DNA from: an uncultured bacterium | GTDB taxonomy: Bacteria; Patescibacteriota; JAHJAL01 | Assembly (NCBI GenBank): GCA_938004065.1 | Contig: CALKWM010000017.1 | Location: 15,342-79,341, forward strand | DNA: 64,000 bases | Direction of reading: 5' to 3' | Part shown: positions 12,002-64,000 of the stretch, piece by piece | How the letters are laid out: each line of letters opens with the position of its first letter | Position numbering within the stretch: the stretch's first letter is position 1 | The notes under the pieces: model-generated | The model's input: only the letters and a program-made list of their open reading frames with translations | The model's database searches: none | Told to the model about the DNA's origin: nothing | Position numbers and translations under genes: made by a program

Positions 12002-13396
12002 CTAACTCAGTAATTTTTCATCCAGCCACTTCTCCAGTTCTTCAATCTTGACTCTTTCTTGCTGCATTGTATCACGATCACGAACCGTCACCGCCTGATC
12101 TTTTTCAATGCTATCAAAATCAACAGTCACACAATACGGCGTCCCAATTTCATCCTGACGACGATATCTTTTGCCGATAGACTGAGTTACATCATGTTGA
12201 CACGCATATTTTGTGTTCAATTTATCAAAAATTTGCCGCGATACTTTTACCAATTCATCTTTTTTCATCAAAGGTAATACCGCCACTTTTATCGGCGCCA
12301 CTTTTTTGGAAAATTTAAGCACCACTCTAGTTTCTTTCTTATCGCCTTCACCAATTTCTTCTTCGTGATATGCATCCAACATTGTTACCAATGCCAATCT
12401 ACCCACACCCAGCGAAGTCTCAACAACACAAGGAATGTACTTTTCATTTCTCTCCTGATCAAAATACTGCAAATCCCTTCCGGAGAACATGCTATGTCTT
12501 TTCAAGTCCCAATCACCTCGATTATGTTGTCCCCAAAACTCCGCCCAGCCCCATGGAGAATTATACTCAATATCGTATGCGTCACGAGCATAATGTGCTC
12601 TTTCTTCCGGTTCATGTTGCCGAAAACGTAGATTTTCTTTATCAATCCCAATTTCCTCCTGTAAAAATTTCATACTCTCGCTCTTCCAATATTCATATTT
12701 TTCATCGGCCTCACTGGGATGAAGAAAATACTGCATTTCCATTTGTTCAAATTCGCGAGTACGATAAATAAAATTTTTTGTAGTAATCTCATTTCGAAAA
12801 GCTTTCCCAATTTGAGCAATACCAAACGGCAATTTCTGACGAGTGGACTGTAATACATTTTCAAAATTTACAAAAATTGTTTGGCATGTTTCACCTCGCA
12901 AATAAACCGTCCTTTTTTCTCCCTCGGTCACACCGATTGAACACTCCATTAATAAATTAAAACTTCTTATGTCGGTCCAATCAATTGCACCACAATTTTC
13001 ACAAGATATTTCTTCATCTTTCAACATCAAACTCAACTCCGGCAAAGTCTTGCCAGCAACTTTATCCACACCCAATTTTTCTTCCAAAATTTTATCCGCC
13101 CGATATCGCTTCTTGCAACTTTTACAATCAACCAAAGGGTCGGTAAAACTATCCACATGTCCTGATGCTTCCCAAATCTTGGGATGGGTCAAAATCTGCC
13201 CATCGATTCCTTCAATATCTTCCCGCTTCCACACAACATTTTTCCACCACAATTCTTTTAAATTACTAATCAATTCAACCCCCAACGGACCATAATCATA
13301 GATACTGGCAAAACCACCATATATCTCACTTGACGGATAAACAAAACCACGTTGTTTTGCCCAAGCCACCAATTTATCCATACTTACTTGTGTCAC
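12002..13396 (-). CDS. glyQS: Glycine--tRNA ligase (homodimeric GlyQS type)
   Basis: 464 aa whose N-terminus VAWAKQRGFVYPSSEIYGGFASIYDYGPLG is the hallmark of class II dimeric GlyRS. Has a C-terminal anticodon-binding domain. Confidence 0.9.
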   Translation of the reverse strand: MTQVSMDKLVAWAKQRGFVYPSSEIYGGFASIYDYGPLGVELISNLKELWWKNVVWKREDIEGIDGQILTHPKIWEASGHVDSFTDPLVDCKSCKKRYRADKILEEKLGVDKVAGKTLPELSLMLKDEEISCENCGAIDWTDIRSFNLLMECSIGVTEGEKRTVYLRGETCQTIFVNFENVLQSTRQKLPFGIAQIGKAFRNEITTKNFIYRTREFEQMEMQYFLHPSEADEKYEYWKSESMKFLQEEIGIDKENLRFRQHEPEERAHYARDAYDIEYNSPWGWAEFWGQHNRGDWDLKRHSMFSGRDLQYFDQERNEKYIPCVVETSLGVGRLALVTMLDAYHEEEIGEGDKKETRVVLKFSKKVAPIKVAVLPLMKKDELVKVSRQIFDKLNTKYACQHDVTQSIGKRYRRQDEIGTPYCVTVDFDSIEKDQAVTVRDRDTMQQERVKIEELEKWLDEKLLS

Positions 13397-61750: not shown

Positions 61751-62026
61751 ATTTTTTTTGAAATAAATAAACTAAAGACACCTTCTCATTATAAATCATT
61801 CTTTAGTTCGAATAATTATTCAATGATAAAACAGAAATTTCAATTCTGGAAATTATGTATTACGTAATAATTAACAAAACTATCTTCCACTCTTTATTTT
61901 CACAAGAATATACCAAAATTCATTCTTACTCGATCAACCCTTCACTTAAATTTACTTGTGTATAACTTCATCTTGTTAACTTTCTATTTATTTTCTATAA
62001 TTTTTATATAAGTAATAAATAATTAT

Positions 62027-63484
62027 ATGATTACAAAAAAACAAAAGGAAATATTGGAATACATAAAGAAATATTATTCTATACATGAATATTCTCCAGC
62101 ACTAGAAGACATTAAAAAACATTTCAGAATGTCTTCTGTTTCCACAGCCCATCATCACGTAAAAAAACTTGAAGAAAAGGGATTTTTAAAAAAAGACGGA
62201 AATATACCTAGATCAATTTCTGTTTTTGAGAATGAAAAAATGGTGAATATCCAATTGATGGGGAAAATTGCTGCCGGTCACCCAATAGATGCAATATTAG
62301 AAAAAGAGACAATTGCAATTCCTAAAAGTAAAATATCAAAACCAGGAAGTTATTACGCATTAAAAGTTATCGGAAATAGCATGATTGATGAAAACATATA
62401 CGATGGAGATATTATTTTAGTTAAACAACAAGACACTGCTGAAAATGGTCAAAAAGTTGTAGCATTAATAGATAACTGTGAAACAACATTAAAACAATAC
62501 TTTAAAGAAAAAAATAGTATTCGATTGCAACCAGCAAACAAAAAAATGGAACCCATAATCATTCAATCAAACAGAGAGATAAAAATACAAGGAATTATTA
62601 TTGATATAATAAATTCACTACCAAAACCACCTTTAAATATTCGAGCAACTGACAAAATTTACAAAAAAAACAAAAAAAAATTAGTTAATAATCAAATAAT
62701 TTGTGGCGATTGCGTAAAAATACTTAGAACTATACCTGATAATTCCATTGATTTAGTAGTTACCTCACCACCATATGACATGGTAAGAAAATATAATGGA
62801 TTTAGTTTTAATCTTCACGAAACTGGCCAAGAATTGTATCGCGTTTTAAAAAATGGAGGCATTGCAACAATGGTCATACAAGATCAAACTAAAAATTTCG
62901 GCAAATCTCTAACTTCTTTTCGCACAATAGTTGATTGGGTCGATAATATTGGTTTCAAACTGTTTGAGACAGTTATATACAGAAAACACGGAACAGAAGG
63001 AGCATGGTGGAAATATAGATTTCGTGTAGATCATGAATACATGCCAATTTTTATTAAAGGAGAAAAACCAGCTTATTTCAATAAAGAACCATTAAAAATA
63101 CCATCGAAACATGGTGGTAAGGTTATGACAGGAAGTGGTAACCGTAAAACAGATGGAACAACTACAAAAACAGTAACCAGAGCAATTAATTCAACAAAAT
63201 GCCGAGGAACTATATGGGACTATTTAAATGCAGGGGACAAAAATCCACTAAAAAGAAAACACCCAGCAGTTTTTCCGGATAAAATTCCTTTTGATTTTAT
63301 TCAATGCTTCTGTCCGCATAATGGGATTGTTTTAGATCCGTTCGTTGGTTCCGGCTCCACAGTAGTTATGGCAAAACAACTCGGTAGAAAATATATTGGA
63401 ATTGATATTTCCCAAGAATATTGCAACTTATCAAAAGAGAGATTAAAAACTGTTAACAAAAGTTTATTTGATAAATTAGAATAA
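62027..63484 (+). CDS. Fusion protein: LexA-type repressor/S24 autopeptidase (N-terminal, about 195 aa) fused to a beta-class N4-cytosine/N6-adenine DNA methyltransferase (C-terminal)
   Basis: Residues 1-~75 form a LexA winged-helix DNA-binding domain (EILEYIKKY...ALEDIKKHFRMSSVSTAHHHVKKLEEKGFLKK). It has the Ala-Gly cleavage site (KIAAGHPID), the catalytic Ser in GNSM and Lys in ILVKQQD. The methyltransferase has motif IV DLVVTSPPY preceding motif I LDPFVGSGST, which is beta-class order. It is one uninterrupted 485-codon frame. Confidence 0.75.
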   Translation: MITKKQKEILEYIKKYYSIHEYSPALEDIKKHFRMSSVSTAHHHVKKLEEKGFLKKDGNIPRSISVFENEKMVNIQLMGKIAAGHPIDAILEKETIAIPKSKISKPGSYYALKVIGNSMIDENIYDGDIILVKQQDTAENGQKVVALIDNCETTLKQYFKEKNSIRLQPANKKMEPIIIQSNREIKIQGIIIDIINSLPKPPLNIRATDKIYKKNKKKLVNNQIICGDCVKILRTIPDNSIDLVVTSPPYDMVRKYNGFSFNLHETGQELYRVLKNGGIATMVIQDQTKNFGKSLTSFRTIVDWVDNIGFKLFETVIYRKHGTEGAWWKYRFRVDHEYMPIFIKGEKPAYFNKEPLKIPSKHGGKVMTGSGNRKTDGTTTKTVTRAINSTKCRGTIWDYLNAGDKNPLKRKHPAVFPDKIPFDFIQCFCPHNGIVLDPFVGSGSTVVMAKQLGRKYIGIDISQEYCNLSKERLKTVNKSLFDKLE

Positions 63485-63940
63485 TTTATCATTAGTTTCT
63501 ATTGTATATTCAATGTTAGTTCCACTAGTCATTGCCATTGACAGTGGATTTGTATCCATTAAAGAACTATAAGTCTGGTTATTCAAAGAAGTTTTGGAAA
63601 AATCACCTTTGCTAAACTTATATAGACGAAAATTATTCCAATGCCACTTCTCTACTTGATAAGACCAACCAACATATTTTGCCATTGAAATCACAAATTC
63701 TTCAATTCTAATCTTTTCTTTATTATGAATATCAACTGTAGAAATATTATTCACTAAATTTATTGGTATACCACTAGAATTACTTATTCTAAGTTTATCT
63801 CCCGTTCGCTTATTTCTACCACCTTCAATATACAATCCGCTACCATTGCAATATCCCGTTGCATTAAAATTGTCCCTCATCCTTAAAAAATCATTTAATC
63901 CTAACATTATTTCATAAAAACTATAATGGTTTGCACACAA
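63476..63940 (-). CDS. Hypothetical protein convergent with and overlapping the LexA-methyltransferase gene (candidate partner, e.g. a restriction endonuclease). Speculative.
   Basis: About 143-154 aa. A TTG start sits at about 63939 with an in-frame stop just upstream; the first ATG is 11 codons in. It overlaps the methyltransferase stop by 9 nt. No family recognised. Confidence 0.4.
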   Translation of the reverse strand: MCANHYSFYEIMLGLNDFLRMRDNFNATGYCNGSGLYIEGGRNKRTGDKLRISNSSGIPINLVNNISTVDIHNKEKIRIEEFVISMAKYVGWSYQVEKWHWNNFRLYKFSKGDFSKTSLNNQTYSSLMDTNPLSMAMTSGTNIEYTIETNDKLF

Positions 63941-64000
63941 TAATGAATTTAGAATTTGATTTTTATTATTAATGCTTAAATAATTTATCCACTCAATACA

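Follow-up and report, generated by a model that had tools for sequence, protein, structure and literature searches.

A LexA repressor and a methyltransferase in one polypeptide

The window, by which we mean the whole stretch of 64,000 nucleotides that was analysed, carries an open reading frame that starts with ATG and encodes a protein of 485 amino acids, and a second gene converges on it from the opposite strand. The coding region contains the following features.

62027..63484, plus strand: LexA-methyltransferase fusion gene, 485 amino acids plus stop
62027..62212, plus strand: LexA winged-helix DNA-binding domain, residues 1-62 (PF01726, E 1.6e-12)
62141-62170, plus strand: recognition helix S39-L48 of the LexA domain
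62153-62155, plus strand: specificity residue His43, aligned with E. coli LexA Glu45; co-varies with the operator
62255..62602, plus strand: S24 autoprotease and dimerisation domain, residues 77-192 (PF00717, E 3.6e-29)
62273..62278, plus strand: scissile bond Ala83-Gly84 (GCC GGT) within IAAG, aligned with E. coli LexA Ala84-Gly85
62378-62380, plus strand: Ser118 of the S24 domain, aligned with E. coli S119
62492-62494, plus strand: Lys156 of the S24 domain, aligned with E. coli LexA K156
62615..62689, plus strand: variable inter-domain linker, residues 197-221, which holds the A8/A9 tracts
62690..63448, plus strand: beta-class N6/N4 DNA methyltransferase domain, residues 222-474 (PF01555, E 4.1e-39)
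62762-62776, plus strand: methyltransferase motif IV TSPPY, residues 246-250
63335-63355, plus strand: methyltransferase motif I DPFVGSG, residues 437-443
63476..64000, minus strand: 3' part of the convergent partner gene R (candidate restriction endonuclease), which overlaps the stop of the fusion by 9 bp and runs past the window end

A reading made from the sequence only had described this frame as a complete LexA fused to a beta-class methyltransferase of the SPPY type, and the Pfam, TIGR00498 and PDB matches agree with that description. The matches to LexA_DNA_bind (residues 2-62), Peptidase_S24 (77-192) and N6_N4_Mtase (241-471) are all strong, and residues 2-196 score 169.9 bits with the NCBIfam 'lexA' equivalog TIGR00498, the cutoff of which is 110.95 bits. 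The closest PDB match for the LexA part is the Thermotoga maritima LexA (3k2z, E 1.8e-30, full alignment), and the structures 1jhh and 3jso can also be aligned with it from end to end. The linker is predicted with an AF2 pLDDT below 50 over residues 198-216. The motifs of the methylase part are arranged as in the beta class, with IV ahead of I, as had been pointed out. The best PDB match of this part is the m4C enzyme 8s9n (E 9.4e-18), and m6A enzymes match too; judging from the SPPY motif and the best match, the methylase is probably of the N4-cytosine type.

It had been suggested that an indel in the A8/A9 tracts could undo the fusion. The tracts exist (62663-62680) and they are located in the linker, where a sequencing or assembly error might have joined separate lexA and methylase genes. 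However, more than 170 full-length homologues from independent assemblies keep the two parts in one frame, and the clusters listed at 90% identity, at least 120 in number, are all full-length (474-499 amino acids, 64-100% identical). The carriers include about 55 species-representative (reference) genomes, nearly all of them Patescibacteria from many lineages, and the single frame is kept in these genomes despite linkers that differ widely in sequence and length. Furthermore, the translated linker has no Met codon that could serve as the start of a methylase gene of its own, whereas true split lexA/M forms show a stop, a gap of about 25-30 bp and then an ATG. Frameshift or misassembly as the origin of the fusion is thus refuted at the level of the family, and the idea of an artefact at this locus deserves practically no credence. 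A phage origin of the fusion was rejected as well: the methylase domain is found in 84 viral contigs, always without the LexA part. The methylase domain alone has relatives of 75-81% identity in other phyla.

Promoter, candidate operator and the recognition helix

Five features are located upstream of the start codon.

61957..61966, plus strand: upstream promoter element TGTGTATAAC, one mismatch to the conserved TGTGGATAAC
61973..61978, plus strand: -35 hexamer TTGTTA, the top plus-strand promoter call, with a layout that recurs in homologous loci
61981..61998, plus strand: candidate operator, tandem direct repeat TTTCTAT-TTAT-TTTCTAT with a period of 11 bp
61996..62001, plus strand: -10 hexamer TATAAT; the second half-site of the operator runs into it
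62003-62009, plus strand: degenerate third operator unit

The promoter call TTGTTA-17-TATAAT scores 10/12, with a weak -35 hexamer, and promoter-like matches occur at chance frequency in this AT-rich region; the promoter assignment therefore rests on conservation across loci. The candidate operator, which was recognised by eye as a direct repeat in aligned promoters, is an exact 18-bp tandem repeat lying 29 bp upstream of the ATG, within the -35/-10 spacer. Its copy is unique in the 64 kb (0.00 expected from 100 shuffles). A tandem-repeat operator is present upstream of 51 of the 52 fusions, and upstream of standalone methylase genes, those with no lexA-like gene adjoining, it was found in none of 23 loci. 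A search for a palindromic dyad in the upstream regions gave AT-rich noise only (TATT-N6-AATA and the like).

Other assignments in this region were considered and rejected. The element TGTGGATAAC, which reads as the DnaA-box consensus TTATCCACA on the opposite strand, stays invariant although the recognition helix of LexA varies; it is therefore not the LexA site and is treated as a separate element. In 35 of 52 loci the exact form TGTGGATAA is found no more than 160 bp ahead of the fusion, and it has 11 copies in the remaining ~674 kb; since a rough composition estimate gives ~8.5 copies against the 11 observed outside promoters, there is no avoidance of the kind anticipated for a target of the restriction-modification (R-M) system. 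The C-protein as the binder of the repeat was dismissed because the repeat is found at loci without C and its sequence tracks the LexA helix.

Across the 52 loci the half-site co-varies with residue 43 of the helix. Where this residue is Phe, Tyr or His, the half-site has TAT or GAT in 66 of 70 cases; Gln goes with GGT (18/20 half-sites) and Glu with GGG (10/12). The same rule predicted the operators of six independent LexA fusions with unrelated methylases (one C5, two gamma, one Dam-like and two beta enzymes), and it also holds for a standalone LexA and for an operon in which lexA and M are split. It can therefore be proposed that the LexA domain of the fusion reads this operator, and the correspondence between residue 43 and the half-site amounts to a testable recognition code for the binding of a LexA-type winged helix to direct repeats.

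The question arises whether the protein could be the global SOS repressor of the cell, the sole LexA of a reduced genome, which controls a repair regulon as well as itself. It passes the LexA equivalog model and is named 'transcriptional repressor LexA' by NCBI, no second LexA is found in the 64-kb window, and at locus L171 a standalone LexA has an operator of this design in the promoter of its own gene, so that cross-talk with the host SOS box is conceivable. On the other hand, no multi-gene SOS regulon with a shared box was found in the window and the flanks of the loci (8 kb on either side). Of the locus-matched operator, 50 copies lie at the promoters of fusions; the remaining ~676 kb contain 8, against a whole-set shuffle expectation of 7.0, which is no more than chance. 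Besides, the module always travels with R-M genes, on many unrelated methylases, and its specificity varies by locus, unlike a conserved host regulon. We regard a global role as quite improbable.

Restriction-modification context and proposed control of the methylase

The gene adjoining the methylase encodes a protein of ~340 amino acids in 77 of the 84 loci examined, and the R fragment in the window is homologous to it; among the 52 fusion loci it is intact in 43 and disrupted in 5. The partner protein has no Pfam or PDB sequence match and shows only a weak fold resemblance to DHH-like proteins, and therefore the nuclease assignment stays that of a candidate. A homologue search with the fragment in the window gave only 5 fragments; a search based on an alignment brought up 1246 proteins labelled 'hypothetical'. 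Other LexA-methylase fusions adjoin recognised nucleases of the EcoRV, Tsp45I and MwoI families. The methylase part is probably that of a Type II system, in which the gene for the candidate nuclease runs convergently.

In this genome the partner gene is broken by a -1 frameshift ~370 bp past the window end and is split over two frames (L001 ~12340-12352), and no C homologue is present at the locus. Hence a partner gene that could be controlled no longer exists here, contrary to what had been supposed, and the fusion would now act as a solitary, self-regulated methylase. In 26 of the 43 loci with an intact partner, an HTH_3 C-protein of 73 amino acids lies directly upstream of the candidate nuclease gene, convergent to the methylase; LexA is therefore not a substitute for C, and the proposed replacement of the C-protein does not hold.

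The alignment of 172 fusions provides information about the cleavage chemistry. Ala83 and Gly84 are each present in 171 of the 172 sequences and Ser118 in 170; the Ala-Gly bond of IAAG and the nucleophile of GNSM had been identified correctly from the sequence. The general base had been misplaced: the Lys of LVKQQ (position 133) is Lys in 106 and Arg in 63 of the 172, and the catalytic lysine is Lys156 in TTLKQY, which is conserved in 171. In the methylase part TSPPY is present in all 172 and DPFVGSG is essentially invariant too. Mean pairwise identity is 0.36 in the linker, 58% in the DNA-binding domain, 0.71 in S24 and 0.79 in the methyltransferase. As far as conservation can tell, the cleavage site and the catalytic dyad are under strong purifying selection, from which damage-triggered self-cleavage at Ala83-Gly84 would be expected. 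In the LexA of one split operon (L173), AAKK replaces AAG, so the scissile Gly is absent and cleavage is not universal. A search with E. coli RecA matched no recA, either in the window or at the other loci, and is uninformative.

The fusion is not the one-off that it had appeared to be. It belongs to a large class, found in bacteria of the candidate phyla radiation (CPR), in which the LexA module is joined to every class of methyltransferase, be it beta, gamma, Dam-like or C5. There are also natural intermediates with separate lexA-like and M genes (L055-57, L060, L081 and L173). One fusion, at L058, consists of the DNA-binding domain and the methylase with no S24 domain and keeps a matching operator, which shows that the S24 domain is dispensable for an operator-linked fusion. 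This raises the possibility that the LexA module is a scaffold for DNA binding and dimerisation that serves autorepression only, with no damage response, its S24 chemistry being vestigial or used for slow constitutive turnover. Such a view agrees with L058, with the missing scissile Gly of L173 and with the known methyltransferase-repressor fusions SsoII and Ecl18kI, which work protease-free. However, in a pure scaffold neither the dyad nor the scissile bond would stay invariant, and these are retained in 170-171 of the 172 fusions while the identity of the DNA-binding domain and the linker is only 58% and 36%. The scaffold explanation is therefore considered unlikely.

What is favoured instead, with some confidence but short of a firm conclusion, is that the protein is a self-repressing methylase, the repression of which is probably relieved by RecA-stimulated self-cleavage. 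From the conservation, the operator and the R-M context we infer the following course. One polypeptide would combine a LexA repressor, a flexible linker of ~25 residues and a Type II beta-class methyltransferase, and the LexA part would act as a private autorepressor, bound as a dimer to TTTCTAT-N4-TTTCTAT. Occupancy of the operator would fill the -35/-10 spacer and overlap the -10 hexamer, and the synthesis of the methylase would be kept at a set level, an effect that M.SsoII and M.Ecl18kI achieve with their N-terminal domains. Upon DNA damage, RecA on single-stranded DNA would stimulate self-cleavage at Ala83-Gly84; the DNA-binding domain would be freed from the dimeric S24-methylase body and the promoter derepressed. 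The methylase could then rise when repair and recombination yield unmethylated DNA that the cognate nuclease is able to cut, and Type II systems would thereby have their own equivalent of SOS-linked 'restriction alleviation'. The SOS-gated, self-regulating module proposed earlier thus stays the best reading, now with a candidate operator identified in its own promoter, but without the part in which it takes the place of a C-protein.

The opposite physiological direction also has to be weighed. Damage or phage infection could trigger a cleavage that exposes degrons, the methylase would be lost and the stable nuclease would cut the under-methylated chromosome, as in abortive infection. The new C-terminus of the fusion (...IAA) resembles the ...VAA with which E. 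coli LexA ends after cleavage and which ClpXP recognises, and addiction is a known property of R-M systems; once cleaved off, the S24-methylase fragment could be degraded instead of staying active. Yet cleavage also derepresses the promoter, and therefore new protein would still be made, and there is no sign that the S24-methylase fragment is unstable. In addition, five loci, this one included, retain an intact fusion after loss of the nuclease, which indicates that the fusion is valuable as a methylase in its own right. A suicide switch is accordingly very improbable, and derepression of the methylase remains the preferred reading.

In a wider sense, and more tentatively, since we would hold it to be slightly less likely than not, Patescibacteria may have made LexA into a portable damage-sensing cassette for R-M control, which comes with a matched operator and was repeatedly joined to Type II methylases of every class. 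The helix and operator variants may correspond to separate 'immunity groups', and RecA-triggered self-cleavage may re-balance methylation and restriction during DNA damage.

Relation to known regulatory systems

R-M systems must keep the methylase ahead of the nuclease, and to our knowledge few devices for their control have been described: C-proteins, HTH domains fused to the methylase, methylation of promoters and antisense RNA. With a complete SOS sensor attached to the methylase, control in response to damage would join this list. If this is true, R-M regulation would have a third general mode in addition to C-proteins and SsoII-type methylase-repressors, and for the first time a Type II system would be wired directly to the SOS signal. 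It would also be a Type II counterpart to the long-known alleviation of Type I restriction and would show how LexA is re-used in ultra-small, regulator-poor CPR genomes. There are also practical consequences. Hundreds of database records go simply by the name 'transcriptional repressor LexA' or 'adenine-specific methyltransferase', which mis-describes them, and R-M-borne LexA copies could confound reconstructions of SOS regulons in Patescibacteria.

The architecture had been thought not to be described before, and nothing to the contrary was found: a full-text literature search, which did not cover the clearly relevant study of Sanchez-Osuna, Barbe and Erill 2017 (Environ Microbiol), returned no description of a LexA-methylase fusion, and a 2025 review of R-M systems, which devotes a section to 'dual function MTase repressors', does not mention LexA (PMC12707154). 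Altogether, the results point to an undescribed way of controlling R-M systems, which is probably damage-gated.

The closest likeness is to the methylases with an N-terminal regulatory HTH, and the analogy drawn earlier with SsoII and EcoRII fits. Repressor domains fused to methyltransferases have been reviewed (PMC12707154 section 11) and studied (PMC3978073, PMC2760811). M.SsoII, M.Ecl18kI and M.EcoRII, and also M.MspI and M.ScrFIA, share with the fusion an N-terminal DNA-binding domain, a flexible linker and a methyltransferase of an R-M system. In SsoII-type systems the operator is located at the methylase promoter and the enzyme represses its own gene (PMC3978073, PMC2760811, PMC12707154), which is the design predicted for the fusion. 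In the known cases a C5 enzyme carries a simple HTH of ~70-100 residues and no protease, whereas the fusion has a full LexA of ~195 residues with an autocleavage site and Ser/Lys dyad, the LexA add-on is shared by methylases of the beta, gamma, Dam-like and C5 kinds, and its operator is a tandem, not an inverted, repeat. The R and M genes are convergent at the fusion loci and hence have no divergent promoter in common on which the LexA domain could act. Pfam and PDB searches gave no SsoII-like match for the regulatory domain, and on this basis it is analogous, not homologous, to the SsoII-type HTH.

With canonical LexA (TIGR00498) the fusion shares the order of domains, the scissile Ala-Gly, the Ser/Lys dyad and an operator over its own promoter. 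The direct-repeat form of the operator is like that of Alphaproteobacteria, where the LexA box is GTTC-N7-GTTC; the corresponding sequence in the fusion is TTTC-N7-TTTC, with the same 11-bp spacing (PMC4951493). The fusion differs from canonical LexA in its C-terminal extension of ~290 residues (linker plus enzyme), in having no regulon beyond its own promoter in the sequence scanned (window and flanks), and in travelling with mobile R-M genes while its specificity diversifies by locus.

Lambda CI, SetR of SXT and non-canonical S24 repressors are further cases in which the S24 repressor of a mobile module ties expression to host DNA damage (PMC8565304). These repressors are free-standing and control genes of lysis or transfer, whereas the repressor of the fusion is covalently part of the enzyme it would regulate, and it is a true LexA-type winged helix in contrast to the CI-type HTH. 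The Type II systems with C-proteins (PvuII, Esp1396I and others) resemble many fusion loci in having the C-protein immediately upstream of the nuclease. There C controls the C-R operon, and the LexA module would be an additional controller on the side of the methylase; in the genome of the window C is absent. Finally, the proposed outcome is similar to the alleviation of Type I restriction, in which unmethylated repair products are spared from the cell's own nuclease during damage (PMC12707154 section 25). The means differ: in Type I alleviation HsdR is degraded by the host ClpXP, whereas the fusion would derepress transcription of the methylase through its own cleavage.

The fused protein and its spread

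Window 62027-63484, + strand: fusion ORF, 485 codons, ATG start (from translation)

The sequence-only reading had placed a LexA repressor and a beta-class methyltransferase in this one ORF, which was borne out by Pfam (LexA_DNA_bind, residues 2-62, E 1.6e-12; Peptidase_S24, residues 77-192, E 3.6e-29; N6_N4_Mtase, residues 241-471, E 4.1e-39), by the NCBI LexA equivalog TIGR00498 (residues 2-196, 169.9 bits vs a cutoff of 110.95) and by structure searches. The top matches among solved structures are full-length LexAs (T. maritima 3k2z, E 1.8e-30; E. coli 1jhh and 3jso), followed by methylases of the beta class: m4C enzyme 8s9n, TTHA0409 (2zie), M.PvuII (1boo), CcrM and M.MboIIA. By sequence criteria, the fused module is a LexA; a multi-gene LexA regulon was not found within the sequence scanned. 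All the motifs named in that reading are present, except that the general base had been misassigned to K133 of LVKQQ, a residue replaced by Arg in 63 of 172 homologues; it is K156 in TTLKQY, which aligns to K156 of E. coli. Of 172 fusions, 171 retain A83, 171 G84 and 171 K156, 170 retain S118 and all 172 retain TSPPY; the cleavage dyad and scissile bond are evidently under selection.

Artefactual joining of two genes was rejected, since full-length homologues are present in many assemblies and the frame is preserved through divergent linkers. Among 5967 homologue matches, every one of the best 120 clusters is full-length (474-499 aa, identity 64-100%, coverage 98-100%); they originate from NCBI, JGI, ENA and Logan assemblies, and include Giovannonibacteria, Nomurabacteria, Pacebacteria and further Patescibacteria. 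A search for the same architecture in other genomes, scanning one genome per species, detected a relative in 328 genomes, the top ~55 of which carry the whole fusion and are nearly all labelled as Patescibacteria lineages. The linker (residues 197-221) varies in sequence and length among homologues, with the frame kept every time; mean pairwise identity is 0.36 in the linker, 0.58 in the DNA-binding domain (DBD), 0.71 in S24 and 0.79 in the methyltransferase. The AF2 model has pLDDT <50 at residues 198-216, as would be expected of a flexible tether. In the alignment of fusions (A1), residues ~366-388, between motifs VIII and X, occur in two alternative versions, MTGSGNRRTDGTTTKTVTR and MTGGGTRLTNGIRIATRSI, which may be target-recognition variants and hence differ in specificity.

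The operator and the recognition helix

Window 61973-62001: best promoter call, TTGTTA-17-TATAAT, enclosing the operator
Window 61981-61998: operator TTTCTAT-TTAT-TTTCTAT, 29 bp ahead of the ATG
Window 61957-61966, + strand: DnaA-box-like element, TGTGTATAAC

When the 110-bp upstream regions of 52 fusions were aligned, a tandem direct repeat of 11-bp period emerged, with a -35-like hexamer on one side and TATAAT, which it overlaps, on the other. The half-sites of one operator change together across loci, in step with residue 43 in the recognition helix of the LexA domain (S39-T-A-H-X43-H).

Half-site triplet by residue 43
F, Y or H: TAT or GAT in 66/70
Q: GGT in 18/20
E: GGG in 10/12

Residue 43 aligns to Glu45 of E. 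coli LexA, which the 3JSO work reportedly places in the SOS-box-reading helix. The operator is found both with and without a nearby gene for the HTH_3 C-protein. We take the tracking of residue 43 by the half-sites, and the independence of the repeat from the C gene, as strong comparative support for the fused LexA domain being the reader of this operator, to which it would bind.

The exact operator occurs once in the 64 kb window (0.00 expected from 100 shuffles), and locus-matched half-sites give 50 matches at fusion promoters vs 8 elsewhere in 676 kb (whole-set shuffle expectation 7.0); the tandem repeat is absent from 23 of 23 standalone-methylase loci. In the sequence scanned, the operator is private to the fusion, and its placement is one at which a repressor blocks RNA polymerase. 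The only fusion locus lacking the repeat, and an exception to the helix rule, is L053 (4992-6299, labelled Omnitrophota), which has the helix STAHHH and an upstream palindrome, GGTGTCA-T-TGACACC. Alphaproteobacteria are known to have a LexA box, GTTC-N7-GTTC, that is likewise a direct repeat in an 11-bp register (PMC4951493).

A second element, TGTGGATAA(C), is an exact match to the DnaA-box consensus (TTATCCACA); it occurs no more than 160 bp ahead of the start in 35 of 52 fusion loci, with only 11 copies in the other ~674 kb. It is conserved beside the operator, though at no fixed position or orientation; split lexA-like genes (L055-57, L060, L081) and the C5 and gamma fusions (L085, L086) have it upstream as well. 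A role in tying methylase expression to DnaA and replication is possible. The 64 kb contain five exact TGTGGATAA/TTATCCACA 9-mers (window 2468, 10702 and 58160 on the + strand, 13062 and 49335 on the - strand), and copies with one mismatch strongly favour one strand: 45 of 52 are TTATCCACA-like on the + strand, which may reflect coding-strand bias or a nearby replication origin.

A class of fusions, its intermediates and its partners

Queried with fusion residues 1-200, an exhaustive search yielded 266 representatives at E < 1e-30. Most of the nearest ~50 (44-62% identity) span 270-890 aa, with LexA as residues 1-199, and ordinary ~200-aa LexAs first appear at about 47% identity. In 18 of 20 long representatives a DNA methyltransferase domain follows LexA_DNA_bind and Peptidase_S24.

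Fused methylase types
N6_N4_Mtase, several subfamilies including permuted order
MethyltransfD12 (Dam-like)
N6_Mtase/Eco57I/TaqI_C (gamma class)
C-5 DNA_methylase

All six loci fetched from these 18 carry the 11-bp tandem repeat at the promoter and obey the residue-43 rule. Convergent nucleases are of the EcoRV family beside the Dam-like fusion, the Tsp45I family, with an HTH_3 C-protein, beside one beta fusion and the MwoI family beside another. On these comparisons, LexA-methylase fusions form a class and not a one-off.

Split and partial forms are also found.

L173 3728-5205, + strand: split form, 198-aa LexA (P0399) then N6_N4 methylase gene
L058 7992-9053, + strand: DBD-only fusion to the same methylase, without S24, 353 aa

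At L055-57, L060 and L081, a separate 205-225-aa lexA-like gene ends ~25-30 bp ahead of an unfused methylase gene. Upstream of P0399, the nearest 'standalone' LexA (47% identity), lies TTTCGAT-N4-TTTCTAT; downstream, after a 12-bp gap, come the methylase gene and then a convergent gene. P0399 may be a non-cleavable derivative, because Ala-Lys (IAAKKP) stands in place of the scissile Ala-Gly; the catalytic Ser and Lys are retained. The operator of L058 matches its helix (ATIHQH with TTTCGGT-N4-TTTCGGC), and its upstream region holds TTTCGGTTAATTTTCGGC as the matching operator plus TGTGGATAAC. Since the genuinely standalone LexA of L171 has an operator of like design (TTTCGGC-N4-TTACGGT) over its own TATAAT, comparison suggests that the module descended from the lineage's own LexA.

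The fusion lies in the setting of a probable Type II restriction-modification (R-M) system. A downstream convergent gene, the candidate restriction endonuclease, overlaps the fusion stop by 9 bp. Its homologues (~338-347 aa) adjoin the methylase gene in 77 of 84 loci examined, convergently in Patescibacteria and co-directionally in Firmicutes and Bacteroidales, where the methylase is unfused. Directly ahead of it, at the C-protein position, a 73-aa HTH_3 protein is encoded in 26 of 43 fusion loci with an intact partner. In this genome, the partner gene breaks into two frames ~370 bp beyond the end of the window, and a C homologue is missing, the C-protein gene having been lost.

L001 (this genome's own locus) ~12340-12352, beyond the window end at ~64366-64378 in window numbering: -1 frameshift disrupting the partner candidate nuclease gene

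Here AAC CAC CTT of the relatives is replaced by AACACCTT. Over 12.7 kb, the NCBI MAG does not differ from a Logan assembly of SRR6007447, but the two probably rest on the same reads. Four further loci have an intact fusion beside a decayed partner.

The methylase domain alone (75-81% identity) occurs in Clostridia, Bacteroidales, Planctomycetota, Ignavibacteria and DPANN archaea, and none of 84 viral contigs with this domain has a complete LexA module. The sole viral match reaching upstream of the domain, L100 1149-2360 (IMG/VR UViG_2785510917_000001; query residues 102-481, 48% identity), begins at residue 102 and may be a partial S24-methylase. Because the methylase occurs without LexA in other phyla and in viral contigs, it follows that a very mobile pair of methylase and candidate nuclease gained LexA within the candidate phyla radiation.

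Proposed regulation and known systems

The observation of the sequence-only reading is confirmed; its interpretation is supported in part. As a dimer, the fusion would repress the promoter from which it is expressed, self-cleavage at A83-G84, stimulated by RecA*, would release the DNA-binding domain, and methylase synthesis would then be derepressed during DNA damage, so that unmethylated repair products could be shielded from the cognate nuclease. The reverse outcome, in which the methylase is lost and suicide by the nuclease follows, is possible. We regard autorepression as highly probable and damage-triggered cleavage as having slightly better than an even chance; the two taken together we consider reasonably likely. 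Protection at the time of damage would be a Type II analogue of Type I restriction alleviation (PMC12707154).

No LexA-methylase fusion is described in the full-text literature searched, outside which lies the study of the Patescibacteria SOS network by Sanchez-Osuna, Barbe and Erill (2017), and LexA is not mentioned in a 2025 R-M review (PMC12707154); public databases already list the proteins, generically named. Among known devices, the nearest are M.SsoII, M.Ecl18kI and M.EcoRII, in which a repressor domain is fused to a methylase (PMC3978073, PMC2760811, PMC12707154). Their repressor domains have no protease and are analogous, not homologous, to the fused LexA. Methylase-repressors as such are known; a methylase-repressor with an acquired SOS-sensing autoprotease, generalised over methylase classes, would be new.
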